Source of the DNA: an uncultured Actinomycetes bacterium
GTDB taxonomy: Bacteria; Actinomycetota; Actinomycetes; S36-B12; CAIYMF01
Reading direction: 5' to 3'
DNA length: 32,000 bases
Assembly (NCBI GenBank): GCA_963843975.1
Contig: CAWJMG010000003.1
Span: 420,001 to 452,000 of the forward strand
The notes under the pieces are model-generated. The model searched no databases and had not been told where the DNA came from. It was given only the letters and a program-made list of their open reading frames with translations. The number at the start of each line of letters is the position of its first letter. Position 1 is the stretch's first letter. A program made the position numbers and the translations under genes. Positions 10,285-25,996 of the stretch are shown piece after piece.

Positions 10285-10499
10285 GAGGGCGCGGGGGCGT
10301 TCGGGTCGGTGCCGCGCGCGGTGGAGAAGGGCTCGCCGCCGATGCCCCACTCGTCGGGGGAGATCTCGTAGATCGCGACGCGGATGCGGTCCTTGGGGGT
10401 GCCGACGGCCTCGTGCATCGCCTCGGTGAGCCCGCGGATGAGGGCGTGCTTCTGCTCGACGGTGCGCCCCGCGACCATCGTGACCTGGATCAACGGCAT
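10281..10499 (-). CDS. 4-oxalocrotonate tautomerase family enzyme (2-hydroxymuconate tautomerase)
   Basis: 72 aa beginning MPLIQV (catalytic Pro-1 after Met removal). ...GRTVEQKHALIRGLTEAM... is typical of 4-OT. GAGGAG SD. It sits in the position equivalent to xylH/dmpI. Confidence 0.85.
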   Translation of the reverse strand: MPLIQVTMVAGRTVEQKHALIRGLTEAMHEAVGTPKDRIRVAIYEISPDEWGIGGEPFSTARGTDPNAPAPS

Positions 10500-10509
10500 G
10501 AGCGGCTCC

Positions 10510-11286: not shown

Positions 11287-12353
11287 GCGGTCTTCCCCTC
11301 GGCCTCGGCGTGCTTGCGGGCTAGCTCGACCGCGACGTCGATGATCATGTCCTCCTGGCCACCGACCACCTTGCGCTTGCCGAGCTCGAGCAGGATCTCG
11401 GCCTGCGGGACTCCGTACCGCTCGGCGGCCCGCTCGGCGTGCAGCAGGAACGAGCCGTAGACGCCTGCGTAGCCGAGCAGCAGGCCCGCACGGTCGACCA
11501 CCTGCTGGCGCGGCATGAGCGGCCGGGTGACCTCCTCGGCGAGGTCCATGAGCATGAGCGGGTTGACGCCGCTGATGATGCCGTTCTTCTCGCAGACCGC
11601 GGCGAGGATCTCGGTGGGGCAGTTGCCCGCCCCGGCGCCGAGGCCGGCGCTGGTGCCGTCGAGGTTGCGCGCGCCCTCCTCGTACGCCGCGATGGAGTTC
11701 GCGACGGCGAGGGACAGGTTCTGGTGCGCGTGGACGCCGAGGGGGACGTCGATGCCGCCCACGATCTCGGCCACGCGGGCGCGGACCTCGTTGGTGGTCA
11801 TCGCACCGGCGGAGTCGGCGATGTAGACCGTGTCGGCGCCATAGCCCTCGAGCAGCTTCGCCTGCTGCAGGAGGCCCTGCGGCGTGTTCATGTGGCTCAT
11901 CATCAGGAAGCCGATGGCCTCCATGCCGAGCTCCTTGGCGATCTTGATGTGCTGCTGGGTGATGTCGGCCTCGGTGCAGTGCACGGCGATGCGCACGACG
12001 TTGACGCCGAGGTCGCGCACGCGGCGCAGCTCGTCGACGGTGCCGATGCCGGGGACGAGCAGCACGGCGATGTCGGCGTCGGTCGTGGCGTTCACGGCCG
12101 CCTCGACGAGCTTCATCTCGTCGACCTTGCTGAAACCGTAGTTGAACGACGAGCCGCCGAGGCCGTCGCCGTGCGTCACCTCGATGACCTGGACGCCGGC
12201 GGCGTCGAGGCCCTTCACGACGGCGACCACCTGGTCCTCGGTGTACTGGTGCGAGATCGCGTGCGAGCCGTCGCGCAGCGTCGAGTCGATGAGGCGGAAG
12301 TCCCGCTTCACCTCGGCCCCGGTCGTGGCTGCGGTGTCGATGGTGGCGGTCAT
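11283..12353 (-). CDS. dmpG: 4-hydroxy-2-oxovalerate aldolase
   Basis: The upstream part of track ORF 11283..12884 is junk. ATG 12353 overlaps the dehydrogenase stop (ATGA). [40 protein letters not shown] and [12 protein letters not shown] are hallmark DmpG/BphI/MhpE motifs. Confidence 0.93.
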
Positions 12354-13255
12354 GCCGAGACCTCCTGGTGCGCGGCGATGGCCTCGCCGACCCGGACCGC
12401 CGCGGCGGTCATGATGTCGAGGTTGCCGGCGTACGTCGGCAGGTAGTCGCCGGCGCCCTCCACCTCGAGCAGGACGACGGAGCGGAACGGCACGATGCCG
12501 CCCGGGGTGTTGAAGGGGCCTTCCTCGATGAGAGGAGGGGACTTGAGGCGGTAGCCCGGCACGTACTTCGCGACGTCGGCCACCATCTGCTCGATCGAGG
12601 CGACGACGGCGTCGTGGTCGGTGCCCTCGGGGAGAGCGCAGAACACCGTGTTGCGCATGAGGATCGGCGGCTCCGCCGGGTTGAGCACGATGATGGCCTT
12701 GCCGATCTCGGCGCCTCCGACCTCGACGAGCGCCTGGCGCGTGGTGCGCGTGAACTCGTCGATGTTGGCCCTCGTGCCGGGGCCGGCCGACTTCGACGAC
12801 ACTGCCGAGACCATCTCGGCGTACGGGACGCGCGTGACGCGGCTGACGGCGGCGACCATCGGGGTCGTGGCCTGGCCGCCGCACGTCACCATGTTGACGT
12901 TGATCGCGTCGAGGTGCTCCTCGAGGTTGACCGCTGCGATCACCTTCGGGCCGCGGGCCGCCGGCGTGAGGTCGACCGCGCGGATGCCGAGCTCCTCGAG
13001 CACCTTGGCGTGCCGCACGTGCGCGTAGGCGCTGGTGGCGTCGAACACCATCTTCACGGCGTCCGGGTTCTCGCGGACCCAGTCGATGCCGTTGCTCGGC
13101 GCCTCGTACCCGTGGTCGCGGGCCCGGGCGAGGCCGTCGCTCTCGGGGTCGATGCCGATGAGGGCGACGAGGTCGAGCGCCGTCGAGCGCTCGAGCTTGT
13201 ACATGAGGTCGGTGCCGATGTTGCCGGAGCCGATGATGGCGACGGGGAGTCCCAC
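12350..13255 (-). CDS. acetaldehyde dehydrogenase (acetylating), DmpF/BphJ/MhpF type
   Basis: GTG 13255 follows [23 protein letters not shown] (Rossmann fold), [14 protein letters not shown] (catalytic Cys), NLDIMTAAA. Paired with the aldolase, as in all meta-cleavage lower pathways. Confidence 0.93.
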
Positions 13256-13265
13256 GGTGTTCCCT

Positions 13266-14054
13266 TCAGACGATCCGGACGGAGACCGAGCCGAGCCGGT
13301 CGAACTCGGCCCGGTAGGTCTCACCAGCGGCGACCGGGACGGCTGCGTGCAGCGCCCCGGTCATGACGATCGAGCCCGCGGACAGCGATGCGCCGAGCGG
13401 GTGGAGAGTGCGGACGAGCCAGGCCACGGCGGCGGCGGGGTTGCCGAGGGCCGCGGCGCCGGCTCCGGTGGCGATGACCTCGCCGTCGCGGGTGAACACC
13501 ATCCCGAGGGTGCGCAGGTCGACGTCGGCGACGGGCGTGCTGGCGCCCCCGATGAGGATCGCGCCGCTGCTGGCCATGTCCGCGACGGTGTCGGGGAGCT
13601 TGATCCTCCAGTCGGCCACGCGGCTGTCGACGAGCTCGATCGAGGCGACGACGCCCTCGACGGCGCGCAGAACGTCCAGGGGGGTGCAGTGCGGGCCGGA
13701 CAGGTCGGCGCCGAGCACGAGCGCGATCTCTGCCTCGAGCTTCGGGGCGATGAAGTCGGTGAGCGCCACGGACGCACCGTCGTCGAGCACGTGCGAGGCC
13801 ATCACCGGCGCGAAGTCGGGGGAGTCGACGCCGAGCATCTGCTGCATCGGCTTGCTGGTCAGGCCGAGCTTGTAGCCGACGATGCGGTCGCCGTCCTCGA
13901 GGTAGCGGCGTACGACGCCCTGCTGGACGAGGTAGCCGTCCTCGAGGGTGAGGCCCGGGTCGGCCTCGGTGAGGGGCGGCACGGGCACCCGCGTGCGGCG
14001 CGCGTCGTACAGCGCGGCCGCGAGCTCGTCGGCGCGCTCGGGCGAGAGGGTCAT
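13266..14054 (-). CDS. 2-oxopent-4-enoate (2-keto-4-pentenoate) hydratase (XylJ/DmpE/MhpD position)
   Basis: 262 aa. [31 protein letters not shown]. The start ATG overlaps the IclR stop (ATGA). It is the first enzyme gene in xylJQKIH-like order. Confidence 0.8.
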
Positions 14055-14869
14055 CGCGTTCCTTCCTTGCGGGCGGGAGACTCGGCGAATCCCATGCGTC
14101 GGCTGATGGCTGCGGCCGCCTCGGTCACCGGGCGCACGTATCGGCGCAGCGTGGCGCCCTCCATGCGGGTCAGCGGGCCGGCGATGGAGAGGGCTGCGAC
14201 CACGACGCCGCGTCCGTCACGGATCGGCGCGGCGATCGACGCGACGCCGACCTCGGACTCGTTGACGTTCTCGGCCCATCCCTGCGCGAGCACGATCTGC
14301 AGCTGCGCGCGCAGCGTGGCCTGGTCGGAGATCGTGTACTGCGTCTTGCGCGGGAGCCGCCAGCCCGACAGCAGGGCGTCCAGCTCGGTCGCGGGCAGGT
14401 GGGCCAGCAGCACCTTGCCGGTGGACGTCGAGTGCGCGTCGTTGCGGTGGCCGACGCGACCGAAGAGGCGGATGGTCTGCGGGCTCTCGCGCCGCTCGAC
14501 GTAGACGACGTGGCGTCCGTCGAGGACCGCGATCTGCACGGTCTCCTTGGTGATGTTGCGCAGCTGCTCGATCACCGGGTTCGCCGCCGAGTGCAGGTCG
14601 ATCGCCGACTGCACGCTGGCACCGAGCTCGTGCATCGCGAGGGCGAGCCGGTAGGTGCCGGTGTCGGTGTCCTGCTCGAGCAGCCTCTCGACCGTCAGGG
14701 TGTGCAGGAGCCGGTGGGTGGTGCTCTTGCCCAGGCCGAGACGTCGCGCGAGCTCGCTGACGCCGATCTCGCGGTCGCCCTTGCCGAACTCCTTGAGCAG
14801 GCGGGCGGCGTTGCTCACGCTGGCGAGGACCTGGGTGTCGCCGACGGGACGGAGATCGCGATCGGCCAC
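14051..14869 (-). CDS. IclR-family transcriptional regulator
   Basis: Only the C-terminal 272 codons of track ORF 14051..15448 look coding. GTG 14869 lies 1 nt after the stop of the upstream gene. The winged HTH is IGVSELARRLGLGKSTTHRLLHTL. The effector domain is GRVGHRNDAHSTSTGKVLLA...GWAENVNESEVGVASIAAPI. Confidence 0.85.
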   Translation of the reverse strand: MADRDLRPVGDTQVLASVSNAARLLKEFGKGDREIGVSELARRLGLGKSTTHRLLHTLTVERLLEQDTDTGTYRLALAMHELGASVQSAIDLHSAANPVIEQLRNITKETVQIAVLDGRHVVYVERRESPQTIRLFGRVGHRNDAHSTSTGKVLLAHLPATELDALLSGWRLPRKTQYTISDQATLRAQLQIVLAQGWAENVNESEVGVASIAAPIRDGRGVVVAALSIAGPLTRMEGATLRRYVRPVTEAAAAISRRMGFAESPARKEGTR

Positions 14870-14870
14870 G

Positions 14871-15554
14871 TCAGCGAACCTCTGCCGGAGCACGCAGTGC
14901 TGCGAGCAGGGCGCGGCGGATGTCGGCGTCCTCGGAGCCGGGGGAGGCGCACACCGCGGCGAGCGCCGCGTCCCCGGGCGCGAGCTGCTGCGCGAGAAGT
15001 CGCACGGTCTGGTGCAGGCCGACGCGCTCGGCGACGGCGTACTCCTCGGCGAGGCCCGCTCGTGAGCCGGAGTTGGCCCGGATGGCGTCGTGGTCGCGGA
15101 AGAGCGCCGCGTGCTGGTTGGCGAGGCCGGTGCCCGCGTGCTGGGCGTGGTGCGGCGTGAGGCCGCCGCCGGGGGACACCGACAGGTGGTAGACGACGTC
15201 GGCGACGCCGAGCACCTGGCGCACAGCCGCCGGCTGGGCCGCCTCGGACTCGTCGATGCCACCGAGCCCCGGCGCCACGATCGGGTCGAAGAAGCGCAGG
15301 GTCCAGGCGAGGCCGGGGAGCGAGTCGTGCAGCTCGACCTCCTGCCCCTGCGGAGCGGGGAGCGGCGACGTGGTGGCGAGCACGTGGAGGTGGCGGACAC
15401 CGACCGCGAGCACGGTGAGGCTGTCCGTGCGGGTGAGCGGGAGGGCACCCTGCTCGCCGACCGGCAGGTGCCGAGCCTGGTCGAGGTAGGCGCCGTGCAA
15501 CGCGGCCACGAACTGGGCCATGGCGTCCCGCAGCTGGCCGGGGTCTGCGCTCAT
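14871..15554 (-). CDS. hypothetical protein, first gene of the minus-strand operon (no family recognised)
   Basis: The ORF track gives 14871..15677. I prefer ATG 15554 (MSADPGQLRDAMAQF...), which lies 7 nt downstream of TACCTT. Third-position GC is consistently high over 227 codons. The stop is 1 nt before the IclR start. Confidence 0.55.
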   Translation of the reverse strand: MSADPGQLRDAMAQFVAALHGAYLDQARHLPVGEQGALPLTRTDSLTVLAVGVRHLHVLATTSPLPAPQGQEVELHDSLPGLAWTLRFFDPIVAPGLGGIDESEAAQPAAVRQVLGVADVVYHLSVSPGGGLTPHHAQHAGTGLANQHAALFRDHDAIRANSGSRAGLAEEYAVAERVGLHQTVRLLAQQLAPGDAALAAVCASPGSEDADIRRALLAALRAPAEVR

Positions 15555-15636: not shown

Positions 15637-16545
15637 ATGGGCATCCTGCGGCTCGGCCACGTCGACGTGACGGTCACCGACCTCGACCTCGCGACGGCCT
15701 ACTACACCGAAGTGATGGGCATGATCGTCGTCGAGCGTGACGCCGACTCGGTCTACCTCAAGTGCTGGGACGAGGTGGACCACCACTCCCTGCGCCTCGT
15801 CTACGCACCCCGCGTCGGCCTCGACCTCATGGCTTTCAAGGTCGAGCGCGAGGACGACCTCGCCGACCTCGAGAAGGCTGTGAACCGCTACGGCTTCCCC
15901 GTGCAGCGGATCTCCAAGGGCGAGTCGGTCGGCCAGGGCGAGTCGATCCGGTTCGAGACGCCGTCGGGCCAGACGATGGAGCTGGTCCACGACGTCGAGA
16001 AGGTCGGCGGCCTGCTGCCGAAGATCAACCCGGCGCCGTTCGTCACCGGCATCCCCGGCATCGCGCCGCCGCGCATGGACCACCTGCTGGTGACGGCCGA
16101 GGAGGTCGGCGAGGCGACGACGTTCTACACGAGCGTCCTCGGCTTCCGCGTGACCGAGCAGCTGCTCGACGGCAACGGCCACCAGATCGGCACCTGGATG
16201 GAGCGCTCGTTCTCGCCGCACGACCTCGCGATCGTGTCCGGGCCCAACGGAGGCCTGCACCACTTCGCGTTCTGGCTGGACGACTGGGAGTCGGTGCGCA
16301 AGGCCGCCGACACGCTCGCCTACAACGGCATCCAGATCGACGTCGGCCCGACGCGCCACGGCGTGACGCGGGGGAGCACCATCTACTTCTTCGACCCGCT
16401 GGGCACGCGCAACGAGGTCTTCACCGGCGGCTACCGCCCCGACCCCGACTTCCCGACGATCACCTGGACCGAGGACAACATCGGACGGGCCGTCTTCTAC
16501 TACGAGGGCGAGCTCAACGACCGCTTCATGAAGGTGCACACCTGA
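15637..16545 (+). CDS. catechol 2,3-dioxygenase-type extradiol dioxygenase (two-domain VOC, type I), copy 1
   Basis: The ORF track gives 15520..16545. ATG 15637 gives MGILRLGHVDVTV. The predicted Fe ligands are the His in PRMDHLLV, the His in GGLHHFAF and the Glu in GTRNEVFTGGY. 302 aa. Confidence 0.9.
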   Translation: MGILRLGHVDVTVTDLDLATAYYTEVMGMIVVERDADSVYLKCWDEVDHHSLRLVYAPRVGLDLMAFKVEREDDLADLEKAVNRYGFPVQRISKGESVGQGESIRFETPSGQTMELVHDVEKVGGLLPKINPAPFVTGIPGIAPPRMDHLLVTAEEVGEATTFYTSVLGFRVTEQLLDGNGHQIGTWMERSFSPHDLAIVSGPNGGLHHFAFWLDDWESVRKAADTLAYNGIQIDVGPTRHGVTRGSTIYFFDPLGTRNEVFTGGYRPDPDFPTITWTEDNIGRAVFYYEGELNDRFMKVHT

Positions 16546-17456
16546 TGAGCATCCTGCGACTCAGCCACGTCGAGGTCCGCGTACCCGACCTCGAGCTGGC
16601 GACGGCGTACTACTGCGAGGTCGTCGGCCTGATCGAGACCGCGCGCGAGAGCGAGCGGGTCTTCCTCAAGGCCTGGGACGAGCACCAGCACCACTCGGTG
16701 GTGCTCACCTGGGAGCCGACGCACGGCCTCAACCACTTCGGCTTCAAGGTCACCGAGCTCGAGGACCTCGACCTCTACGCCGCCCGCCTCAAGGAGGCCG
16801 GCGTCGACGTCGTCCGCTACGGCCCCGACGAGTGGGCGCCCGGGCACGGCGAGGCGATCCGCTTCACGCTGCCGAGCGGCCACTCGATGGAGCTCGTGCA
16901 CGGCATGCAGCAGGTCGGAAACCTCCTGCCGCTGACCAACCCGCCCCCCAAGCCCCTGGGGCTGCCGGGCATCGCGCCCCCACGCATCGACCACATCTTC
17001 CTGACGGCCGAGGACGTCGGCGGCATGACCGACTTCCTCGTCGAGGTCCTGGGCTTCCGGGTGACCGAGCAGGTCGTCGGCGACGACGGCTTCCGCATCG
17101 CCACCTGGCTCGAGGTGTCTCACGCCAGCCACGACATCGCGCTGGTCACCGGCTCGAACGGCGGCCTGCACCACTTCGCGTGGGCGGTGGAGGACTGGAC
17201 GGCGCTGCGCGACGCGGCGGACGTCTGCGCCTACCACGGCGTCCGCATCGAGACGAACCCCACGCGCCACGGCGCGACGCGCGGCCACTGCCTGTACTTC
17301 TTCGACCCCGTCGGCAACCGCAACGAGGTCTTCACGGGCGGCTACTGGGTCGACCCCGACAACGAGCCCACGATCTGGACCGAGGCGGAGATGGGTCGAG
17401 CCCTGTTCTGGTACGACGGCGTCGTGAACCAGAAGTTCCTGACGGTGCACACGTGA
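16545..17456 (+). CDS. catechol 2,3-dioxygenase-type extradiol dioxygenase, copy 2 (paralog of copy 1)
   Basis: ATG 16545 shares its A with the upstream TGA (TGATG). MSILRLSHVEVRV; PRIDHIFL, GGLHHFAW, GNRNEVFTGGY. It is collinear with copy 1 over the full length at roughly half identical residues (by eye). Confidence 0.9.
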   Translation: MSILRLSHVEVRVPDLELATAYYCEVVGLIETARESERVFLKAWDEHQHHSVVLTWEPTHGLNHFGFKVTELEDLDLYAARLKEAGVDVVRYGPDEWAPGHGEAIRFTLPSGHSMELVHGMQQVGNLLPLTNPPPKPLGLPGIAPPRIDHIFLTAEDVGGMTDFLVEVLGFRVTEQVVGDDGFRIATWLEVSHASHDIALVTGSNGGLHHFAWAVEDWTALRDAADVCAYHGVRIETNPTRHGATRGHCLYFFDPVGNRNEVFTGGYWVDPDNEPTIWTEAEMGRALFWYDGVVNQKFLTVHT

Positions 17457-18538
17457 CCGCCGTGCAGGAGCCGTCCACCGGCTCGGCGTTCCCGCGCACC
17501 GAGCGGCCCGATGCTCCGGCGTACCTCAGCCGCTACCTCGAGCGCACCGCTCGCACGGTCACGCGCGAGGAGGCGGAGGACGACAGCACGCCGCTCTACC
17601 TGCGCCGGTTCCGCGAGCGTCGCGAGTCGACCGACCCGTTCGAGACCCCGGTCCCGATGTACGAGGGCCAGGAGCTCAACACCACGCGCGGCTGGGCCGA
17701 GGTCACCCGTACGAAGGAGATCGTGCCGGAGCGGCGCGAGCAGGCGGCTCAGGCCACGACCGACATCTACTTCGTGCGCCACGGCGAGACGCAGGGCTAC
17801 AGCTCGGAGTCCGGTCTCACGCCGCTCGGCTCGTGGCAGGCGCACCGCCGCGGCCAGGAGCTCGCCCGTCGCGTGATGGACGGGCACACCGTCCGCCTCG
17901 CCTGCGCCGAGACCAACCGGGCCCGCCAGACCGCCGAGCACATCCGGCGGGGGCTGCTCGACGGCATGCAGCTCTTCGGGCGCGATGCCACCGTCGGCGA
18001 CATCGTCGGCTACCGCGAGTTCCAGAACTTCGCCGTGTCGACGCCCGAGGGCCTGCGCGACGTGACCTCGGCGTTCCGCCTCTACGCCAAGGAGATCGAG
18101 GCCTACGAGCGGGTCTCGATGGGGGAGCGCCCGGGCTGGCTCGTGGAGATCGACCGCTTCTGGAAGATCCAGAACGGCGGCGGCGACCCGATCACGCACT
18201 GGCTGACCATGCCGCTCATGCACTTCGAGCCGCCGATCTCCTGCGTGCGCCGGTTCTGGGCCGGCCTCCTGCGCATCCACAACGAGACGCCGGGCAACTC
18301 CGTCGTCGTCGCGACCCACTCCGGGCCGATCCGCGCCTTCGCCACCTGGGCGATGGGCTACGACCCGGGAGAGCCCTTCAACACCGAGTTCGTGCGCGTC
18401 CGTCTCATCGACGGCGGCGTCACGGCGCTCGTGCTCTACCGCAACCGCGTCCAGGAGGTGCACGTGCCCGATCTCGAGGCCCTGCCGAACTGGTGGACCG
18501 GCACCGCGACCGCGGCCGATGTCGCCGAGGAGATCTGA
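17453..18538 (+). CDS. histidine phosphatase (phosphoglycerate-mutase-like) family protein with about 95-aa N-terminal extension
   Basis: GTG 17453 overlaps the dioxygenase stop (GTGA). The RHG motif is IYFVRHGETQGY and the second catalytic His is in VVVATHSGPIRAF. The N-terminal acidic/basic extension is not recognised. Confidence 0.75.
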   Translation: MTAVQEPSTGSAFPRTERPDAPAYLSRYLERTARTVTREEAEDDSTPLYLRRFRERRESTDPFETPVPMYEGQELNTTRGWAEVTRTKEIVPERREQAAQATTDIYFVRHGETQGYSSESGLTPLGSWQAHRRGQELARRVMDGHTVRLACAETNRARQTAEHIRRGLLDGMQLFGRDATVGDIVGYREFQNFAVSTPEGLRDVTSAFRLYAKEIEAYERVSMGERPGWLVEIDRFWKIQNGGGDPITHWLTMPLMHFEPPISCVRRFWAGLLRIHNETPGNSVVVATHSGPIRAFATWAMGYDPGEPFNTEFVRVRLIDGGVTALVLYRNRVQEVHVPDLEALPNWWTGTATAADVAEEI

Positions 18539-19629
18539 TGACGACCATCACCTGGTTCGAGAGCTACTGGGCCGGCATGAAGAGCGAGGTCGGCGGCAAG
18601 GCGGCCAGCCTCGGCGAGATGACCGGCGCCGGCCTGCCCGTCCCGCCCGGCTTCGCGATCACGACGTCGTCCTACCGCCGGGCGCGCGACGAGTCCGATC
18701 TCGACGCGCAGATCGCGCGGCTGCTGCACGGGCTCGACACGTCGAACACCGACATGGTCTCCGAGCGCTGCGCGAAGATCCGCCAGGCGATCGCCACGAT
18801 GCCGATCCCCGAGGGCATCGAGCTGCAGATCCGCGGCGCCTACCTCGAGCTCGGCGCCCGGTTCGGCATGAAGGACGTCCCGGTCGCCGTCCGGTCGTCC
18901 GCCACCTCGGAGGACTCGCCCGACGCGTCCTTCGCGGGCGAGCACGACACCTACCTCTGGGTGCGCGGCGCCGAGGACGTGATCGACGCCGTACGCCGGT
19001 GCTGGGCGAGCCTGTTCACCGACCGCGCCACCTGCTACCGCGTCGAGATGGGCTACGACCACCGCACCGTCGAGATGTGCGTGGTCATCCAGAAGATGGT
19101 GACGCCGAAGGCCGCAGGCGTGGCGTTCACGCTGGACCCGACCAACGGCGACCGCTCGCAGGTCGCGATCGACGCGGCGTGGGGCTTCGGCGAGGCCGTC
19201 GTCGCGGGAGAGGTCACTCCGGACAACTACCGCGTCGACAAGGTGATGCTCGACATCACCAAGCGCATCGTCAGCGAGAAGTCGCACGAGTATGTGCTGA
19301 CCGACCACGACACCGTCGAGAAGGTCGAGACGACGCCCGAGCGCGCCTCGGCACCGTGCCTGACCGACGTGGAGATCAAGGCCATCACCAAGCTCGCCAA
19401 GACGGCCGAGCGCCACTACGGCTGCCCGCAGGACATCGAGTGGGCCGTCGACCTCGACCTCCCCGAGGGCGACAACATCATCCTGCTCCAGTCCCGGCCC
19501 GAGACCTTCTGGAGCAAGAAGGGTCCGACGACGGTCGTCGAGCCGGGCACCAAGAGCGGCGACTTCATGTCGAGCATCGTCTCGACGCTGATGTCGCCGC
19601 TCTACACGAAGGGGGCGGACGGTCCCTGA
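18538..19629 (+). CDS. PEP/pyruvate-binding (PPDK_N, ATP-grasp) domain protein; phenylphosphate synthase beta (PpsB)-like dikinase subunit
   Basis: ATG 18538 shares its A with the upstream TGA. VGGKAASLGEM...GLPVPPGFAITT, VAVRSSATSEDSPDASFAGEHDTYL, CWASLF..RA..YR and AGVAFTLDP are the N-terminal nucleotide-binding module of PEP synthase/PPDK. At 363 aa it lacks the swivel-His domain. Confidence 0.85.
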   Translation: MTTITWFESYWAGMKSEVGGKAASLGEMTGAGLPVPPGFAITTSSYRRARDESDLDAQIARLLHGLDTSNTDMVSERCAKIRQAIATMPIPEGIELQIRGAYLELGARFGMKDVPVAVRSSATSEDSPDASFAGEHDTYLWVRGAEDVIDAVRRCWASLFTDRATCYRVEMGYDHRTVEMCVVIQKMVTPKAAGVAFTLDPTNGDRSQVAIDAAWGFGEAVVAGEVTPDNYRVDKVMLDITKRIVSEKSHEYVLTDHDTVEKVETTPERASAPCLTDVEIKAITKLAKTAERHYGCPQDIEWAVDLDLPEGDNIILLQSRPETFWSKKGPTTVVEPGTKSGDFMSSIVSTLMSPLYTKGADGP

Positions 19630-19725
19630 CCGGCTGTCCGTGGCACGTCGTTCCACCCCCGCGACCGCGCGCTGTGCGGTCGTCCACCCCAGTGAAGACC
19701 CGCAAGGGTTCTAGAAGGAGACCGC

Positions 19726-21537
19726 ATGGCTGGGTTCCCGCTCCCGTCGGAGATCACCACTCCGCCCGGCGCCGAAGGCTGGCAGGAGCTGTACGCGTAC
19801 TCGTCGACGTGCAGCCCCGCGCGCGCCGAGTACGAGGACTCGATGTTCTGGTTCCAGGACGGTGTGCACTGGCCCAAGGCCCTGCTGCCGTGGGACGCCT
19901 CCCTCATGGAGGTGGCGATCATGGCGCTGTCGCAGTACAACACCCGCCACCTGCTCGTCCCGCCGGCCAACGGCATCGACTTCCGTATCGTGAACGGGTA
20001 CACGTACCTCTCGCCCGTGCCGGCTCCCGAGGCCGACATCCCCGCCCGCGCCGAGCAGTTCATGCAGCGCGCCGGCCACTACTTCATGAACTGGAACGAC
20101 CTCTACGACAACTGGCTCATCAAGATCCGCGACCTGGTCAAGGAGATGGAGGGCATCACCTTCGAGACCCTCCCGGACGTCGAGCCCATGGAGGTCGTCA
20201 CCTCCGGTGCAGGCAAGGGCGCGGGCGGCGCGCTGCAGGCGAACTACCTCCACCTGCTCACCTCGGCCAGCACCCTGTGGCAGTACCACTTCGAGTTCCT
20301 CAACCTCGGCTACGCCGCCTACCTCGACTTCTTCGGCTTCTGCAAGCAGGCCTTCCCCGGCATCTCCGACCTCGCCATCGCCAAGATGGTCGCGGGCGTC
20401 GAGGTCGACCTGTTCCGCCCGGACGAGGAGCTCAAGCGGCTCGCCCGCATGGCCGTCGACACCGGCATCACCGACGCCTTCAAGCTCGGCGACGTCGAGG
20501 GCACCTGCGAGGCCCTGCGCGCCAAGGGCGACGCCGGCCAGGCCTGGATCTCGTCGTTCCAGCAGTCGGCCGAGCCGTGGTTCAACTTCTCGACCGGCTC
20601 CGGCTTCTCGAGCCAGGACAAGATCTGGATCGAGAACGTCGAGATCCCGTTCGACTTCATCAAGGGCTACATCGACAACCTCCAGAAGGGCGACGACATC
20701 AACCGCCCGACGGAGGCGATCTCCGCCGAGCGCGACCGCATCGTGTCGGAGTACGTCGCCCTGCTCGGCTCGGACGAGGACCGCGAGGCCTTCAACGGCA
20801 AGCTCGGTCTCGCCCGCGTGGTGTTCCCGTACGTCGAGAACCACAACTTCTACGTCGAGCACTGGAGCCACTCGGTCATCTGGCGCAAGATGAAGGAGCT
20901 CGGGGCGATCTTCGCCAAGGAGGGCTTCCTCGCCGAGCCCGAGGACATCTTCTTCATGAAGCGCCACGAGATCCCGGACGCTCTCTTCGACCTGTACCAC
21001 TCGTGGGCTGCTCCCGCGGTGGCCGCAGGCCCGTCGTACTGGCCCGGGATCATTGCCAAGCGCAAGTCGATCCACGCGGCGCTCAACGCCTGGAAGCCGA
21101 CGCCGGCCCTCGGCACCCCGCCGGAGGTCGTCACCGAGCCCTTCACGATCATGCTCTGGGGCATCACGTCGGACTCCATCGCCAACTGGCTCGGCGGCGG
21201 CGCGAGCGAGGACGGCTCCCTCAACGGCATGGCGGCCTCGCCCGGTGTCGAGGAGGGCCCGGCCCGTGTCATCTTCGGGCCCGACCAGATCAACGAGGTG
21301 CAGGACGGCGAGATCCTCGTCGCCCCGCTCACCGCGCCGAGCTGGGCGCCGATCTTCGGCAAGATCAAGGCGACCGTCACGGACACCGGCGGCATGATGA
21401 GCCACGCCGCCATCGTCTGCCGCGAGTACGGCCTCCCGGCCGTGACCGGCACCGGCTTCGCCACCAGCCTCATCAAGACGGGCCAGCGGATCCGCGTGGA
21501 CGGCTCCAACGGCAAGGTCACGATCCTCGACGACTAA
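19726..21537 (+). CDS. PEP-utilising-enzyme mobile-domain protein; phenylphosphate synthase alpha (PpsA)-like dikinase subunit
   Basis: GAAGGAG SD. 603 aa. The C-terminal swivel domain is GEILVAPLTAPSWAPIFGKIKATVTDTGGMMSHAAIVCREYGLPAV, with the phospho-His intact. The large N-terminal domain (about 480 aa) has no ATP-grasp and is presumed to bind substrate. Confidence 0.85.
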   Translation: MAGFPLPSEITTPPGAEGWQELYAYSSTCSPARAEYEDSMFWFQDGVHWPKALLPWDASLMEVAIMALSQYNTRHLLVPPANGIDFRIVNGYTYLSPVPAPEADIPARAEQFMQRAGHYFMNWNDLYDNWLIKIRDLVKEMEGITFETLPDVEPMEVVTSGAGKGAGGALQANYLHLLTSASTLWQYHFEFLNLGYAAYLDFFGFCKQAFPGISDLAIAKMVAGVEVDLFRPDEELKRLARMAVDTGITDAFKLGDVEGTCEALRAKGDAGQAWISSFQQSAEPWFNFSTGSGFSSQDKIWIENVEIPFDFIKGYIDNLQKGDDINRPTEAISAERDRIVSEYVALLGSDEDREAFNGKLGLARVVFPYVENHNFYVEHWSHSVIWRKMKELGAIFAKEGFLAEPEDIFFMKRHEIPDALFDLYHSWAAPAVAAGPSYWPGIIAKRKSIHAALNAWKPTPALGTPPEVVTEPFTIMLWGITSDSIANWLGGGASEDGSLNGMAASPGVEEGPARVIFGPDQINEVQDGEILVAPLTAPSWAPIFGKIKATVTDTGGMMSHAAIVCREYGLPAVTGTGFATSLIKTGQRIRVDGSNGKVTILDD

Positions 21538-21547
21538 GGGCAGCCTG

Positions 21548-21584
21548 TCCCGCCTGGGGGGCCGAATACGCCCCCCAGGCGGGA
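21548..21584 (+). terminator. strong GC hairpin (14-bp stem, 9-nt loop) in the 106-bp gap between dikinase and oxygenase genes; internal terminator/attenuator candidate
   Basis: tcccgcctgggggg (21548-21561), loop ccgaatacg, then ccccccaggcggga (21571-21584) is the exact reverse complement. Only a weak T-run (cttt) follows, about 15 nt downstream. Confidence 0.45.
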
Positions 21585-21643
21585 TGCTCCGTCAGACTTT
21601 CCGCAGCAGCATCCCCAGCACCGCCGCACACCGGAGGAACCGC

Positions 21644-22897
21644 ATGCTCACCGTGGAGCAGAACAACGAGCTCACGCAGATCGGCCCGGGCACGCCCATG
21701 GGCGAGCTGCTCCGGCGCTACTGGTACCCCATCGCGTTCGAGCAGGACTTCGACACGGTGCCGTCCAAGACGGTCCGGCTGCTGAGCGAGGACTGGACCC
21801 TCTACAAGACCCCGAGCGGCAAGTACGGGATCATCGGCGAGAAGTGCGCGCACCGCCGCGCCTCCCTCACCTACGGCGTCGTCCACGAGGACGGCATCCG
21901 CTGCGGCTACCACGGCTGGAAGTACGACTTCGACGGCCAGTGCACCGAGCAGCCGGCCGAGGCCGACAACCAGAACTTCCGCGACCGCGTGAAGATGAAG
22001 GCGGGCAAGGCCCAGCCGATGGGCGGCATGGTCTGGGTGTACGTCGGCCCCGACCCCGCGCCCGAGCTGCCGCGCTTCGACGTGTTCGTCAAGGACGGCA
22101 TCCGCGACGTCGGCTACACCGTCATCCCGTGCAACTGGCTCCAGATCATGGAGAACTCCGTCGACCCGCACCACGTCGAGTGGCTGCACGGCTACTACTT
22201 CAACTTCCTCGGCGAGACCAACGGCTTCGAGGCTCCGAAGGCGTTCCAGAAGAAGCACATGAAGACCGGCTTCGACGAGATGGAGTGGGGCATCCTCAAG
22301 CGTCGCGTCCTGGAGGGCGGGACCGAGGAGAACGACGACTGGAAGATCGGCCACCCGCTCGTCTTCCCGTTCTACATGCGCGTCGGCGGCGCCTACATCG
22401 ACCAGATGCAGATCCGCGTGCCGATCGACGAGACGCACACCTGGAAGCTCTTCTACTCCACGCACAACCCGGGGGAGAAGCTCACCACCCAGGAGCGCCC
22501 GCACGTGTACGAGTACCTCTGGAAGGACGAGGACGGCCGGTTCATCACCGACTACATCGAGGGCCAGGACGTCATGGCCTGGGTGTCGCAGGGTGAGATC
22601 ACCGACCGCACCCAGGAGCACCTCGGCCGCTCCGACGCCGGTGTGGCCCTGCTGCGCAAGATGTTCAAGGAGAACATGCGCAAGGTGGCCAACGGCGAGG
22701 ACCCGATCGGCACCGTGCGCAACAAGCACGACATCATCAATCTGCCCTGCGAGAAGGACAAGTTCGGGGCCGAGCGCACCTTCGCGGCCGCCTGGATCAA
22801 CGGCGGCTCGATGCGCTACAGCCCCATCAAGGACGAGCTCCTCGCGCTGCACGAGTCCTACTGGTCCGACCTGGAGAAGGCCGAAGCAGGTGCCTGA
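21644..22897 (+). CDS. Rieske non-heme iron oxygenase, alpha-only type (phthalate-dioxygenase-like family), no beta subunit gene
   Basis: ATG 21644 with GGAGG 6 nt upstream. The N-terminus is ELTQIGPGTPMGELLRRYWYP. The Rieske motif is CAH-x16-CGYHGW. The mononuclear iron motif is NSVDPHHVEWLH. 417 aa. Confidence 0.9.
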   Translation: MLTVEQNNELTQIGPGTPMGELLRRYWYPIAFEQDFDTVPSKTVRLLSEDWTLYKTPSGKYGIIGEKCAHRRASLTYGVVHEDGIRCGYHGWKYDFDGQCTEQPAEADNQNFRDRVKMKAGKAQPMGGMVWVYVGPDPAPELPRFDVFVKDGIRDVGYTVIPCNWLQIMENSVDPHHVEWLHGYYFNFLGETNGFEAPKAFQKKHMKTGFDEMEWGILKRRVLEGGTEENDDWKIGHPLVFPFYMRVGGAYIDQMQIRVPIDETHTWKLFYSTHNPGEKLTTQERPHVYEYLWKDEDGRFITDYIEGQDVMAWVSQGEITDRTQEHLGRSDAGVALLRKMFKENMRKVANGEDPIGTVRNKHDIINLPCEKDKFGAERTFAAAWINGGSMRYSPIKDELLALHESYWSDLEKAEAGA

Positions 22898-23186
22898 CGA
22901 GCGATCCGAGGTGGTGGCGCGGGCTGCTGATGCCGCGCCGCTGCCGCTCGACCCGCACGAGCTGCCCGATCCTGGGCAGTGGTTCGCCCCGGACGCCGAG
23001 CGGCACTACCTCGACCGGCCGAAGTTCTGCCCGATGTGCGCGGCCTCGATCGGCGAGCACGGCGGGATCACGACCGAGTACTGGACCGGCGACACCCGCA
23101 ACTTCATGACCTGGTGCGGGGAGTGCGGCTGGTTCGGCGAGGTGGTGCGGTTCGACCGCGTCACGATCATGGAGGAGGAGCACTGA
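22890..23186 (+). CDS. small Cys4 (CPMC...CGEC) zinc-ribbon/rubredoxin-like protein of unknown function
   Basis: This is the C-terminal part of track ORF 22593..23186. GTG 22890 would overlap the oxygenase gene by 8 nt, but the start is uncertain (in-frame GTGs also at 22911 and 22914). Third-position GC is high. KFCPMCAASIGEHGG...MTWCGECGWFGEV. Confidence 0.5.
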   Translation: MPDERSEVVARAADAAPLPLDPHELPDPGQWFAPDAERHYLDRPKFCPMCAASIGEHGGITTEYWTGDTRNFMTWCGECGWFGEVVRFDRVTIMEEEH

Positions 23187-23200
23187 ACCCGGTCGCCGGC

Positions 23201-23956
23201 GTGGACGTGGAGTCCGCTGCCGAGCTGCTGGACGGTGCCCACCTTCGAGGTGTCCTGCTCGAGGCCGTCGACGTGCGCGTCGGCGGCCTCGCTGCTGCCT
23301 ACGGCGTCCAGGACGCCCTGACCGCGCGGCGCCTCGCCCGCGGCGCGACGCGCATCGGGTGGAAGCTCGGCTACACGTCGGCCGTGATGCGCGCGCAGAT
23401 GGGGATCGGGGAGCCCAACCTCGGGCCGCTGCTGTCGAGCATGGTCGTCACGGACGTGCTCGACGACCGATTCGTGCAGCCGCGCGTCGAGCCTGAGATC
23501 GCCCTCGTGCTCGGGGAGGACCCCGGGCCGGGCGCGGGTGTCCAGGAGGTGCTGGGCGCGTGCCGGTCGGCTCACGTGGCGCTGGAGGTCGTCGACTCGG
23601 TCTGGGCCGGCTACGTGTTCGACCTCGAGCACAACACGGCCGACGGGTCGTCCGCTGCGGGGGTCGTCCTGGGTGACGAGATCCCGCTCGACCGGCTCGA
23701 CGAGGTGCGCGTGGCCCTGCACGTCGACGGGGTCGAGGTGGGGAGCGGGCGCGGCGCGGACGCGTCCGGGCACCCGGCGCTCGGGATCGCGTGGCTGTCT
23801 GCGCGGCTCGCCGAGCGGGGCCTGGCGCTGGCCGACGGCGACGTCGTGATCACCGGTGGGCTGACGGCGGCGCACCCGCTCGCGCCAGGATCGACCGTGT
23901 CGGCGGTCTTCTCGCACGACGGGTTCGGCTCACGGACGGTGGAGGTACGACGGTGA
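23201..23956 (+). CDS. third member of the 2-oxopent-4-enoate hydratase / 4-oxalocrotonate decarboxylase family
   Basis: This is the C-terminal part of track ORF 22979..23956. The start is uncertain (GTG 23201 or 23207, or CTG 23183 just after GGAGGAGGAG). GWKLGYTS, QPRVEPEIALVLG, GHPALGIAWL. Confidence 0.75.
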   Translation: MDVESAAELLDGAHLRGVLLEAVDVRVGGLAAAYGVQDALTARRLARGATRIGWKLGYTSAVMRAQMGIGEPNLGPLLSSMVVTDVLDDRFVQPRVEPEIALVLGEDPGPGAGVQEVLGACRSAHVALEVVDSVWAGYVFDLEHNTADGSSAAGVVLGDEIPLDRLDEVRVALHVDGVEVGSGRGADASGHPALGIAWLSARLAERGLALADGDVVITGGLTAAHPLAPGSTVSAVFSHDGFGSRTVEVRR

Positions 23957-24597
23957 AGGCGCTCGTGCTCGACTTCGGCGGCCCCGTGCTGCGCACGCCG
24001 TTCGAGCTGCTGCGCGGCGGCGAGACGCGGATGGGTCTGCCGACCGGATCGCTCGCGTGGACCGGCCCGTTCGACCCGTCCGCCGACGCCGACTGGCGGG
24101 CGATGCAGGCGCACGAGATCACCGAGCGCGACTACTGGCAGCGCAAGGCCGACGAGTTCGCCTCGCTCACGGGGCGCGAGGCGTCGTTCCGCGGGCTCAT
24201 GGACGTGCTGTTCGCCGCGCCGGAGGACGAGCTCGTGCGGCCCGAGGCGCGTCGCCTCGTCGAGGACGCGCGCGAGGCGGGCTTCGCGATCGCCGTCCTC
24301 ACCAACGACATGCAGGCCTTCCACGGGCTCGAGTGGGTGCAGAGCAACAGGTTCCTGACGCTCGTAGACGTGCTCGTCGACGGATCGGTCGAGCACGTGC
24401 TCAAGCCCGATCCGGCGATCTACGAGATGGCCACCGACCGGCTGGGGATCGCCGCGGCGGACTGCCTGTTCGTCGACGACCAGCCCGGCAACATCGCCGG
24501 CGCCGAGGCCGTGGGGATGGCAGCGGTCTGGTTCGACGTCACGCACCCGGAGTCGTCGTACGCGAAGGTGCGGGCATTGCTCGGGATGGGTGGCTGA
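23953..24597 (+). CDS. HAD-superfamily hydrolase (DxG motif-I variant), paralog of 9290-9919
   Basis: GTG 23953 overlaps the upstream stop (GTGA). Motif I is LVLDFGGPVL, motif II is AVLTND, and motifs III/IV are VLKPDP...CLFVDDQPGNIAGA. The cap region TPFELLRGGETRMGLPTGSLAWTGPF aligns with SPFERFGELEARTGMPQGTLPRGPF of the other copy. Confidence 0.8.
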   Translation: MKALVLDFGGPVLRTPFELLRGGETRMGLPTGSLAWTGPFDPSADADWRAMQAHEITERDYWQRKADEFASLTGREASFRGLMDVLFAAPEDELVRPEARRLVEDAREAGFAIAVLTNDMQAFHGLEWVQSNRFLTLVDVLVDGSVEHVLKPDPAIYEMATDRLGIAAADCLFVDDQPGNIAGAEAVGMAAVWFDVTHPESSYAKVRALLGMGG

Positions 24598-24661
24598 GGA
24601 TGTCTGCGACGCGACCGCCCGCGAGCGCCCTCGCGGGGTGCCTCTGTGGTGGGATCGGCTC

Positions 24662-25996
24662 GTGACCTTCCGTGCTGCCGTCGTCGGCGCCGGGCCCTCG
24701 GGCCTGTACGCGGCCGACGCCCTTGCCTCTGCCGGTGTCCACGTCGACGTGATCGAGCGGCTGCCCGTGCCGTTCGGGCTCGTGCGCTACGGCGTCGCGC
24801 CCGACCACTTCTCGATCCGCTCCGTCCGCGACACCCTCGCGAAGGTCCTGGCGCGGCCCGAGGTGCGGCTGCTGGCCGGTGTCGAGGTGGGCGTCGACGT
24901 CACAGTCGACGAGCTCGTCGCGGCGTACGACGCGGTGGTGCTGACCTACGGCGCCTCGCGCGACCGGCACCTCGACGTCCCGGGCGAGGACCTGCCCGGC
25001 AGCGTCGCGGCCACCGACCTCGTCAACTGGTACTGCGGCCACCCGGACGCCGACCGCTCTGCGATCGAGGCCGCGCTGTCCGGCGTCACGTCGGCCGTGG
25101 TGATCGGCGTCGGGAACGTCGCGGTCGACGTCGCCCGCGTGCTCGTCGCTCCGGCCGAGCGCCTTGCGGCCACGGACATGCCTCAGCACGTGCTCGACGT
25201 GCTCGCCTCCACCGGGATCACCGACGTGCACGTGCTCGGCCGGCGTACGGCGGCGCACGCCAACTGGACGACGAAGGAGCTGCGCGAGCTCGGCGAGCTC
25301 GACGGCGTGGACGTCGCGTGCGGAGAGGTCGAGCTCGTGTCGGAGCCGGTCGCGGACCGCCTCGACGCCGACGACCGCGTCGTGCACCGCAACCTCGAGG
25401 TGCTGCACGAGTGGTCGCACCGCGCACCCACCGACGCCGGCAAGCGGATCCACCTGCACTTCCACGCGCGACCGGCGGAGCTGCGCGGCACCGACCGCGT
25501 CGAGACGCTCGTGGTCGAGCGCACGCGCGTCGACGACGACGGCAGCGCGCACGGCACGGGCGAGACATGGGAGCTCCCGGCCCAGCTCGTGATCCGTTCG
25601 GTCGGCTACCGCGGCGAGCCGCTCGAGGGCGTGCCGTTCGACCCGCGCCGCAACGTCGTGCGCAACGACGAGGGCCGCGTAGTCGACGAGTCTGGCGCGC
25701 AGGTGCCCGGGCTGTACGTCGCCGGATGGATCAAGCGCGGGCCCAGCGGGATCATCGGCACCAACAAGAAGGACGCCGGCGCCACGGTCGCGCACCTGCT
25801 CGAGGACCTCGAGGGCCGCTCGGCGCGCGAGGGTGACGGCGTCGTACCCCTGCTCGCCTCGCGCGGCGTCACGCCCGTGGGCCTCGCCGGCTGGGAGTCG
25901 ATCGACGCCGCCGAGCGTGCCCTCGGCGCGACCCAGGGCCGCGACCGCACGACGCTGCACGACCGCGACTCCCTCATAGCCGCCACCCGCCCCTGA
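24662..25996 (+). CDS. FprA / adrenodoxin-reductase-type NADPH:ferredoxin oxidoreductase
   Basis: The ORF track gives 24590..25996. GTG 24662 places AAVVGAGPSGLYAA near the N-terminus, as in FprA; GTG 24590 is the alternative. The family signature comprises PFGLVRYGVAPDH, VIGVGNVAVDVARVL (NADPH site) and VGYRGEP...GWIKRGPSGIIGTNK. Confidence 0.85.
   Translation: MTFRAAVVGAGPSGLYAADALASAGVHVDVIERLPVPFGLVRYGVAPDHFSIRSVRDTLAKVLARPEVRLLAGVEVGVDVTVDELVAAYDAVVLTYGASRDRHLDVPGEDLPGSVAATDLVNWYCGHPDADRSAIEAALSGVTSAVVIGVGNVAVDVARVLVAPAERLAATDMPQHVLDVLASTGITDVHVLGRRTAAHANWTTKELRELGELDGVDVACGEVELVSEPVADRLDADDRVVHRNLEVLHEWSHRAPTDAGKRIHLHFHARPAELRGTDRVETLVVERTRVDDDGSAHGTGETWELPAQLVIRSVGYRGEPLEGVPFDPRRNVVRNDEGRVVDESGAQVPGLYVAGWIKRGPSGIIGTNKKDAGATVAHLLEDLEGRSAREGDGVVPLLASRGVTPVGLAGWESIDAAERALGATQGRDRTTLHDRDSLIAATRP

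Follow-up and report, generated by a model that had tools for sequence, protein, structure and literature searches.

A window of 32,000 nucleotides from an uncultured Actinomycetes bacterium (contig CAWJMG010000003.1, positions 420,001 to 452,000) was analysed, in which adjacent genes encode a split kinase made of a 363-amino-acid (aa) and a 603-aa protein. By all the sequence and fold features tested, this pair is very probably a two-component phenolic dikinase of the PpsAB/CreHI/HpeHI/AcvAB subfamily. The segment around it is read, with somewhat better than even confidence, as the core of the upper pathway in an operon for the aerobic use of a small phenolic compound, which would be phosphorylated, oxygenated by a Rieske oxygenase, dephosphorylated to a catechol and opened by meta-cleavage. 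The G+C content of the window was about 72%, and the real frames were picked from many spurious open reading frames by the G+C content at third codon positions (GC3) and by their translation. On the + strand, positions 15637-25996 form a run of eleven genes, all in one direction, with the following features:

15637-16545, + strand: catechol 2,3-dioxygenase paralogue 1, 302 aa (TIGR03211; PDB 1mpy, XylE)
16545-17456, + strand: catechol 2,3-dioxygenase paralogue 2, 303 aa (TIGR03211)
17453-18538, + strand: histidine phosphatase (branch 1), 361 aa, GTG start (Pfam His_Phos_1)
18538-19629, + strand: ATP-grasp component, PpsB/CreI/HpeI-like, 363 aa, ATG start (Pfam PPDK_N)
19630-19725, + strand: intergenic gap of 96 nt before the 603-aa gene, with a GAAGGAGA ribosome-binding site
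19726-21537, + strand: substrate-binding and swivel component, PpsA/CreH/HpeH-like, 603 aa, catalytic His560
21547-21585, + strand: perfect G+C-rich hairpin of 16 bp directly 3' of the 603-aa gene, 58 nt before the Rieske gene, with no T-tail
21644-22897, + strand: Rieske non-haem iron oxygenase, alpha subunit only, 417 aa (Pfam Rieske and LigXa_C)
22890-23186, + strand: zinc-ribbon-like protein with four cysteines (CPMC...CGEC), 98 aa, GTG start, from the translation
23201-23956, + strand: FAA-hydrolase-fold hydratase/decarboxylase paralogue (Pfam FAA_hydrolase), start uncertain (GTG at 23201)
23953-24597, + strand: HAD-IA phosphatase-type hydrolase, second phosphatase candidate (Pfam Hydrolase/HAD_2)
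24590-25996, + strand: FprA-type NAD(P)H flavin reductase, presumed Rieske reductase (Pfam Pyr_redox_2)

To begin with the kinase, PPDK_N was the sole Pfam domain of the 363-aa protein (expectation value, E, 4e-114), and the swivel domain of the PEP-utilizers family was the sole Pfam match of the 603-aa protein (residues 526-596, E 1e-24), with no Pfam match in the approximately 500 residues N-terminal of it. This bears out the domain content given in an earlier reading made from the letters of the window (hereafter, the sequence-only reading), namely an ATP-grasp module alone in a protein of 363 aa and a swivel domain alone behind an unassigned N-terminal part in the other. The 363-aa protein matched PDB 9goj_A (E 5e-80), a stand-alone chain of 387 residues deposited under the name 'phosphoenolpyruvate synthase', which we take, judging from PMC12167813, to be the crystal structure of HpeI. 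Moreover, the VAVRSSATSEDSPDASFAGEHDTY loop of the 363-aa protein was conserved. The two-polypeptide split had been likened to that of phenylphosphate synthase, and this was confirmed in Azoarcus sp. KH32C, whose PpsA was 46% identical to the 603-aa protein over its full length (608 aligned columns) and whose PpsB was 48% identical to the 363-aa protein; the genes that come after ppsA there are ppsB, one with a CBS domain and ppcBDAG. Identities of 54% (604 columns) and 52% were found, respectively, between the 603-aa protein and the CreH-like protein, and between the 363-aa protein and the small subunit, of a Cre-type cluster on a Rhodococcus ruber plasmid, which also encodes a P450, a ferredoxin, a reductase, a short-chain dehydrogenase/reductase, an aldehyde dehydrogenase and an HD-domain protein. 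Furthermore, the 603-aa protein was placed in NCBIfam PRK08296 ('hypothetical protein') with 815 bits against a cut-off of 650.

The fold of the 603-aa protein pointed in the same direction. Its AlphaFold model had a predicted local distance difference test (pLDDT) of 80, and the fold comparison that the sequence-only reading had proposed for the N-terminal domain returned rifampin phosphotransferase (RPH) entries as the only full-length PDB matches (5fbu, template-modelling score 0.59, E 4e-15). Phosphoenolpyruvate (PEP) synthase, pyruvate phosphate dikinase and Enzyme I matched over the swivel domain of about 120 residues only, which is the same picture as published for HpeH (PMC12167813). 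RPH has the same three modules (ATP-grasp, substrate-binding and swivel His), but in a single polypeptide that serves antibiotic resistance, at approximately 18% identity. The two-component small-molecule dikinases PpsAB, CreHI and HpeHI form one subfamily with the motif T/S-x-x-G-G-x-x-x-H, in which Met replaces the regulatory Thr (PMC12167813). The catalytic His held up on alignment: the swivel motif TDTGGMMSH560AAIVCREYG was intact in the 603-aa protein and invariant in 27 homologues, and T552-D-T-G-G-M-M-S-H560 agrees with the phenolic-kinase motif, with Met at -2 and Ser at -1. By homology with the characterised members, the ATP-grasp protein would present ATP and His560 of the swivel domain would take the beta-phosphate, which would be carried to a phenolic hydroxyl bound in the RPH-like N-terminal domain, with an aryl phosphate, AMP and phosphate as the expected products.

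The gene immediately upstream was confirmed to encode an RHG histidine phosphatase (RHG at residues 109-111) overlapping both of its neighbours, through GTGA and TGATG. The His_Phos_1 match, which starts at residue 105, was above the Pfam cut-off (E 1e-13), and the catalytic residues R109-H110-G111, R156 and H289 were invariant in 32 homologues. In the structural model, residues 100-350 were confident and residues 1-95 were of low confidence; the core had the phosphoglycerate-mutase/phosphatase fold, with a probability of 1.0 to phosphoserine phosphatase, PhoE and dPGM structures, at 14-19% identity to solved structures. The protein thus belongs to branch 1 of the histidine phosphatase superfamily, and phosphatase activity is predicted, since the catalytic residues are invariant and the fold was found in the model. 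A PDB sequence search with it gave only a spurious TAL-effector match. The N-terminal extension of about 100 aa carries the conserved motifs PRTERPDAPAYL and PLYLRRFR. This is a small, dedicated family, with a total of 255 representatives at 50% clustering in 1.8 billion proteins. The best 120 matches of a second search, all with at least 65% identity, bore generic names only, and all the orthologues fetched with their context fell in the cluster type of the window.

The conservation of the cluster was examined by scanning a collection with one genome per species, which gave at least 576 matching stretches, the best 80 of which were fetched with 10-kb flanks. The core order (IclR-unknown / dioxygenase-dioxygenase-phosphatase-PpsB-PpsA-Rieske) appeared in about 75 of these 80 loci across Actinomycetota, involving Nanopelagicales-type metagenome-assembled genomes (MAGs), Nocardioides, Micromonospora, Blastococcus, Nostocoides and Streptosporangiaceae, with kinase identities ranging from 65 to 94%; the 603-aa protein was 98% identical to its counterpart in Longivirga aurantiaca. 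As the arrangement recurs in that many loci, it is more than chance. The overlap between the phosphatase stop and the PpsB start was kept in 66 of 75 loci, and the PpsB-PpsA gap was of 18-232 nt in nearly all the loci measured, one of them giving a spurious value. The Rieske gene was present in 76 of the 80 loci and was directly followed by the zinc-ribbon gene in 73, while homologues of the IclR regulator and of the 227-aa protein encoded beside it appeared in 68 and 64, respectively. The HAD hydrolase came after the Rieske gene in most loci, with a homologue somewhere in the fetched flank in 67 of the 80. The FAA-hydrolase paralogue was found at the position it has in the window in only a minority of related loci. 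No published description of this cluster was found in the literature searched.

The Rieske oxygenase had its best PDB matches among alpha-only enzymes of the phthalate dioxygenase type (7fhr, E 5e-46; 7fjl, E 5e-45), and its bridging Asp and two His iron ligands aligned (D-x-x-H-x4-H). Carbazole dioxygenase matched it at E 3e-15. The 98-aa zinc-ribbon-like protein, without any significant Pfam or NCBIfam match, could be an accessory or electron-transfer protein of the oxygenase. The best NCBIfam match of the HAD hydrolase was 'epoxide hydrolase N-terminal domain-like phosphatase', below the cut-off. Moreover, two types of reductase were found, one or the other appearing in 52 loci. The FprA type is that of the window and 26 loci (Nanopelagicales/Longivirga type), and a phthalate-dioxygenase-reductase type (FNR-like plus 2Fe-2S) was found in 26 loci (Nocardioides/Micromonospora type; L090:14089-15057), the exchange being a non-orthologous replacement of the presumed oxygenase reductase.

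The two dioxygenase paralogues shared 53% identity, and both exceeded the TIGR03211 equivalog cut-off of 320 bits, with 380 bits for paralogue 1 and 344 bits for paralogue 2. Paralogue 1 matched PDB 1mpy (XylE) at E 2e-77 and kept the motifs for all six XylE catalytic and metal residues, and the alignment of paralogue 2 to 1mpy gave equivalents of XylE H153, H199, H214, H246, Y255 and E265. These six residues were conserved across 72-75 orthologues. The genes of the lower pathway lie on the opposite strand, followed by the regulator and a conserved protein:

8177-9247: luciferase-like oxidoreductase, beside the ferredoxin and second HAD side of the cluster
9290-14054, - strand: lower meta-cleavage pathway and electron carrier block (Pfam matches for the enzymes, ferredoxin and HAD), made of the next seven lines
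9290-9919, - strand: second HAD hydrolase (Pfam)
9916-10284, - strand: Rieske-type ferredoxin (Pfam)
10281-10499, - strand: 4-oxalocrotonate-tautomerase-like protein
10510-11286, - strand: decarboxylase (Pfam)
11283-12311, - strand: 4-hydroxy-2-oxovalerate aldolase (Pfam)
12350-13324, - strand: acetaldehyde dehydrogenase (Pfam)
13266-14054, - strand: hydratase (Pfam)
14051-14893, - strand: IclR-family regulator, divergent, start approximate (Pfam HTH_IclR and IclR_C)
14871-15554, - strand: conserved protein of about 227 aa, co-oriented with the IclR gene and facing the operon promoter region

The tautomerase was assigned from its MPLIQV N-terminus, a tblastn match of 50% to the Pfam-typed tautomerase of locus L090 and a Pfam-typed gene that relatives carry in that position. 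The FAA-hydrolase paralogue scored below the cut-offs for DmpH, HpaH and DmpE, and the 227-aa protein had no Pfam or NCBIfam match. The second HAD hydrolase was 36.5% identical to the first one. Altogether, the cluster encodes a three-component Rieske oxygenase, a kinase, phosphatases of two kinds and a catechol meta-cleavage pathway of the dehydrogenative type. Relatives carry a semialdehyde dehydrogenase next to the tautomerase, as in L085 (90% identical), with an aldehyde dehydrogenase beside it; the counterpart of that side in the window holds the Rieske ferredoxin, the second HAD hydrolase and the luciferase-like oxidoreductase (8177-9247). In loci of the Nocardioides type (L090:2985-4211), a protein of 408 aa with relatives in 16 loci combines the Rieske-type ferredoxin with an alpha/beta-hydrolase domain as a fusion, and this alpha/beta-hydrolase part may be a semialdehyde hydrolase.

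Distant homologues of the phosphatase (36-44% identity) were looked up in their own contigs, where other architectures were found. A 13-kb contig (L091:3940-10047) presented the order dioxygenase-dioxygenase-phosphatase-Rieske oxygenase-tautomerase-decarboxylase; this is a 1x long-read contig with frameshifts, whose phosphatase is 39% identical and has the extension. A second cluster type, shared by a Terriglobales MAG (L097:9096-17969) and a 1.2-Mb metagenome contig (L098:9096-18192), had the order IclR / catechol-dioxygenase-like-phosphatase-PpsA-PpsB, followed by a MetE-like gene (Meth_synt_2) and genes for E1 alpha/beta and E2 of a thiamine-dependent dehydrogenase, the dioxygenase and phosphatase genes overlapping by 4 nt. 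In the Amycolatopsis contig JBIAWY010000007 (L099:3557-16133), PpsB-PpsA-HAD-phosphatase lies between microcompartment shell genes and an aldehyde dehydrogenase/lower pathway, in a locus with an AmnAB-type (LigB) dioxygenase, whose shell genes are of the BMC and EutN kinds and whose lower pathway, of the aminophenol type, is complete; its HAD protein was 33-35% identical to the two HAD proteins of the window (33% to that of 23953-24597). The kinases of these other cluster types were 43-46% identical to those of the window. Furthermore, short forms of the phosphatase appeared directly before a PpsA-like gene in contigs with phosphatase relatives labelled Candidatus Dormibacteraeota. A 542-aa fusion (L095:328-1956, P0272) joins a dioxygenase-like VOC domain, without equivalents of XylE H246, Y255 and E265, to the phosphatase core; it is known from a single 2-kb contig and may be an assembly artefact. 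Across five architectures, the N-terminal motif (A)PYL(R/S)RY was present where a dioxygenase gene is immediately upstream and absent elsewhere, a distribution suggestive of a motif that tracks the upstream dioxygenase and not the kinase. Finally, on a plasmid of the haloarchaeon Haladaptatus salinisoli (L088:2407-11939), a kinase of the PpsA/PpsB type (41% identical) is encoded together with a Rieske oxygenase of two subunits, a metallophosphoesterase, and zinc alcohol and aldehyde dehydrogenases, an arrangement that resembles the logic of Cre with enzymes drawn from other families.

From the conserved gene linkage and from precedent, the anionic aryl phosphate would be the substrate of the adjacent phthalate-dioxygenase-like Rieske oxygenase. 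Served by the Rieske ferredoxin, the reductase and the small zinc-ribbon protein, this enzyme would add an oxygen function ortho to the ester, by hydroxylation or O-demethylation. Removal of the phosphate would then fall to the histidine phosphatase, the HAD hydrolase being a second enzyme for this step or a reserve, and the catechol would be released next to the two dioxygenases, its degradation being completed by the dehydrogenative meta-cleavage pathway. Phenol, a cresol and guaiacol are the candidate substrates. Catechol is proposed as the product because both dioxygenases pass the catechol 2,3-dioxygenase cut-off and keep the catalytic residues, and because the tautomerase, decarboxylase, hydratase, aldolase and dehydrogenase are present. 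The tie between the phosphatase and ring cleavage is drawn from the 4-nt overlap with the dioxygenase gene in the second cluster type, from the dioxygenase-like fusion and from the distribution of the (A)PYL(R/S)RY motif. As to precedent, the carboxylase of the Hpe pathway accepts only the phosphorylated ketone, after which a HAD phosphatase (HpeD) removes the phosphate (PMC9618137), and the Cre pathway for 4-cresol proceeds through a kinase, a P450 acting on the phosphorylated cresol and then an HD phosphohydrolase (PMC9618137, PMC12167813). The kinase, Rieske oxygenase and metallophosphoesterase of the Haladaptatus plasmid were counted as a precedent as well. One may speculate that phosphorylation traps a membrane-permeant phenol, gives the oxygenase an anionic handle and masks the reactive catechol until its cleavage.

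Several observations weigh against this scheme. The phthalate-binding residues Ser179 and Ser182 of phthalate dioxygenase (PMC8649396) are replaced in the Rieske oxygenase and the region of Arg207/Arg244 does not align, so the anion-binding residues of phthalate dioxygenase are either not conserved or outside the alignable part, and an anionic substrate has no direct sign in this enzyme. If the oxygenase attacked the aryl phosphate at C1/C2, the phosphate would be lost spontaneously and no phosphatase would be needed, which would leave two conserved phosphatases unexplained. No semialdehyde dehydrogenase or hydrolase was found in the 32 kb of the window. The 13-kb contig L091 holds no dikinase gene, and the cluster type of L097 and L098 has a kinase, a phosphatase and a dioxygenase but no Rieske oxygenase; therefore, the oxygenase step would not be universal to the kinase-phosphatase pair. 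In addition, the functions proposed for this cluster draw, for every member, on homology and gene linkage.

Part of this evidence also bears on an unlikely alternative, by which the order of the steps or the target of the kinase differs. The Rieske enzyme would then be a dephosphorylating 1,2-dioxygenase that converts phenyl phosphate directly into catechol, with the phosphatases relieving build-up or proof-reading, or else the kinase would act on a catechol, an aminophenol or an aromatic amine. Aniline dioxygenase, which acts on gamma-glutamylanilide, offers an analogy for a group-eliminating Rieske step. The relatives of the Rieske oxygenase in class IA include angular, group-eliminating dioxygenases (among them the carbazole dioxygenase matched above), a search of the genes called in the window and its relatives gave no dihydrodiol dehydrogenase for the cluster, and the second cluster type without any oxygenase is also in favour of this alternative. 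A different target would fit the phosphorylation of aniline by related synthases in Desulfatiglans anilini (PMC7500099) and the appearance of the kinase-phosphatase-HAD trio in the 2-aminophenol-type microcompartment locus. However, it is hard to see two phosphatase families with so strict a linkage to the kinase as nothing more than safety valves, the tight linkage of dioxygenase and phosphatase suggests that the product of the phosphatase is the substrate of the dioxygenase, and the nearest relatives of the kinase with a known context are enzymes of the 4-cresol type.

Somewhat less probable is an accessory role of the phosphatase, as raised in the sequence-only reading, by which it would be an accessory or regulatory subunit of the dikinase and replace the CBS-domain subunit PpsC. 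It could do so by hydrolysing the terminal phosphate of the pyrophospho-histidine intermediate, or by resetting the phospho-histidine swivel in the manner of SixA. Histidine phosphatases of the SixA type act on phospho-histidine proteins. The absence of the third, CBS-domain subunit was confirmed, as neither the window nor the genes called in its relatives included one with a CBS domain. The overlap of the phosphatase gene with the ATP-grasp gene in 66 of 75 loci, which implies co-translation, keeps such a role in play; phosphatase homologues also lie immediately beside PpsA-like genes in other architectures, and a conserved extension of low model confidence is what would be expected of a partner-binding segment. 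Against this, two components suffice for the full activity of CreHI and HpeHI, and HpeH can carry out phosphotransfer by itself (PMC12167813), the L091 contig keeps the phosphatase without any kinase, the sole fusion seen is with a dioxygenase-like domain and not with a kinase component, and the extension motif follows the upstream dioxygenase gene. The accessory role was thus disfavoured with respect to a phosphatase acting in the pathway.

A carboxylation of the anaerobic type from phenol to 4-hydroxybenzoate, fed by a phenylphosphate synthase, is highly improbable in spite of the 46-48% identity to genuine ppsA and ppsB products. The phenylphosphate synthase PpsABC of Thauera aromatica and Azoarcus/Aromatoleum shares with the window the split, the domain content and the catalytic His motif with Ser before the His, but it has the third subunit with CBS domains (PpsC), a linked UbiD-type carboxylase and an anaerobic setting. 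Neither a UbiD-type carboxylase nor UbiX nor a CBS subunit turned up among the genes called in the window and its relatives, the neighbouring genes encode oxygen-dependent enzymes and the PpsB-like gene precedes the PpsA-like one, the reverse of the order in Azoarcus. A plain split PEP synthase or pyruvate phosphate dikinase, or a rifamycin-resistance phosphotransferase, as might be suggested by generic names ('pyruvate, water dikinase', 'PEP-utilizing enzyme') and partial NCBIfam matches, is the least credible reading and was rejected, because neither protein has the PEP/pyruvate-binding C-terminal TIM-barrel domain by Pfam (which excludes a gluconeogenic role), the NCBIfam models for PEP synthase gave 357 and 106 bits against a cut-off of 598 with the RPH models also far below their cut-offs, and about 75 of 80 loci have the genes inside a meta-cleavage operon for aromatics under the control of IclR.

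The comparison with characterised systems separates what is shared from what is new. Cre/CreHI (4-cresol; Corynebacterium glutamicum and Rhodococcus plasmids) is likewise an aerobic actinobacterial system with a two-component phenolic dikinase, and it is the nearest relative with a known context. Both have an IclR regulator and share the logic of a kinase, an oxygenase acting on the aryl phosphate and a phosphohydrolase. However, Cre has the P450 CreJ with a ferredoxin and a reductase, alcohol and aldehyde dehydrogenases and the HD-domain phosphohydrolase CreD, none of which was found in the window or the conserved core. It oxidises the methyl side chain to give 4-hydroxybenzoate, whereas the window has a Rieske oxygenase, phosphatases of the histidine-phosphatase and HAD families and catechol 2,3-dioxygenases. 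In the hydroxyphenylethanone (acetovanillone) pathway, HpeHI/AcvAB is a two-component dikinase of the same subfamily, but the Hpe/Acv route uses a biotin-dependent carboxylase on the acetyl group to give vanillate or 4-hydroxybenzoate, while the window adds a histidine phosphatase to the HAD one; no genes for a biotin carboxylase or carboxyltransferase were among those called in the window and its relatives. Anaerobic phenylphosphate carboxylation and pathways of the Cre and Hpe types were all rejected for the window, as their signature enzymes were absent from the window, the conserved core or the relatives. The logic of phosphorylation, transformation and dephosphorylation that the sequence-only reading had suggested fits the strict linkage of kinase, Rieske oxygenase and phosphatase, but it is not new, being established in Cre and Hpe/Acv (PMC9618137, PMC12167813). 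What is new is the combination of the kinase with a Rieske oxygenase, a dedicated extended histidine phosphatase, twin catechol dioxygenases and a meta pathway, together with its wide distribution.

The Amycolatopsis locus was further compared with the ARO microcompartment locus (PMC10470539), whose hallmark genes it has (the AmnAB-type LigB dioxygenase next to shell proteins) and beside which it holds homologues of PpsB, PpsA, HAD and the phosphatase. It differs from the window in having a LigB-type 2-aminophenol dioxygenase and shell proteins, no Rieske oxygenase and a phosphatase without the N-terminal extension. The true substrate of the ARO microcompartment was called unknown by its authors (PMC10470539), and a term search of the main text of that paper found no mention of kinase, dikinase or phosphatase genes. 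A broader and speculative proposal, to which we give low credence, is a portable module for ring cleavage made up of the dikinase, the histidine phosphatase and the HAD hydrolase, which would mask its substrates with phosphate, so that auto-oxidisable ortho-diphenols or aminophenols would be kept as esters from their uptake. Unmasking would be left to the phosphatase alone, docked on the extradiol dioxygenase via the (A)PYLRRY extension, the Rieske oxygenase would act on the aryl phosphate (a so far undescribed ATP-dependent aerobic conversion of phenol or guaiacol to catechol, common among Actinomycetota of fresh water and soil) and the ester would be the shell-permeant substrate of ARO.

Regarding the layout of the operon, its junctions are TGATG at 16543-16547 (dioxygenases 1 and 2), GTGA at 17453-17456 (dioxygenase 2 and phosphatase) and TGATG at 18536-18540 (phosphatase and ATP-grasp gene). 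The 603-aa gene does not overlap the upstream gene, from which it is separated by the 96-nt spacer with the GAAGGAGA ribosome-binding site, and the fold of this PpsB-PpsA spacer (19630-19725) was not significant (z = -1.0). The zinc-ribbon gene starts inside the Rieske gene, with which it shares 8 nt. In the 112-nt spacer after the 603-aa gene, the fold energy was -52 kcal/mol (z = -2.6), with none of 200 shuffles folding as well, and the hairpin at 21547-21585 may serve as a terminator of the actinobacterial type or as an element of mRNA stability, by which the operon would be divided into two units of expression. A consensus scan found no sigma-70-like promoters, and terminator-like sites were no commoner than in shuffled controls. 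The catabolic cluster is flanked by a GyrB/ParE-like gene (3892-6120, + strand) and a GyrA/ParC-like gene (30231-32000, - strand). Relatives L085 and L089 share the downstream neighbours, which are a carbonic anhydrase, a Suc_Fer-like protein and the topoisomerase A subunit, and these shared topoisomerase-side neighbours suggest a stable chromosomal location and not a mobile element.

Two-component phenolic dikinases are a recently recognised subfamily with about four characterised systems, and the cluster of the window is far more widespread (at least 576 stretches), its carriers including abundant freshwater lineages of the Nanopelagicales type. In the work on HpeHI, its authors propose phosphorylation as a means of trapping phenolics that diffuse freely and are present at low concentration (PMC12167813), which would suit oligotrophic freshwater lineages. 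If the proposed pathway is true, it would be a third, ATP-consuming aerobic route from phenol to catechol, probably tuned to scavenging trace phenolics, and aryl phosphates would join the substrate range of Rieske oxygenases. Moreover, the kinase-phosphatase-HAD set in an aromatics microcompartment locus provides a lead on the substrate of this organelle, and the enzymes are candidates for the funnelling of lignin monomers and for the selective making and hydrolysis of aryl phosphates.

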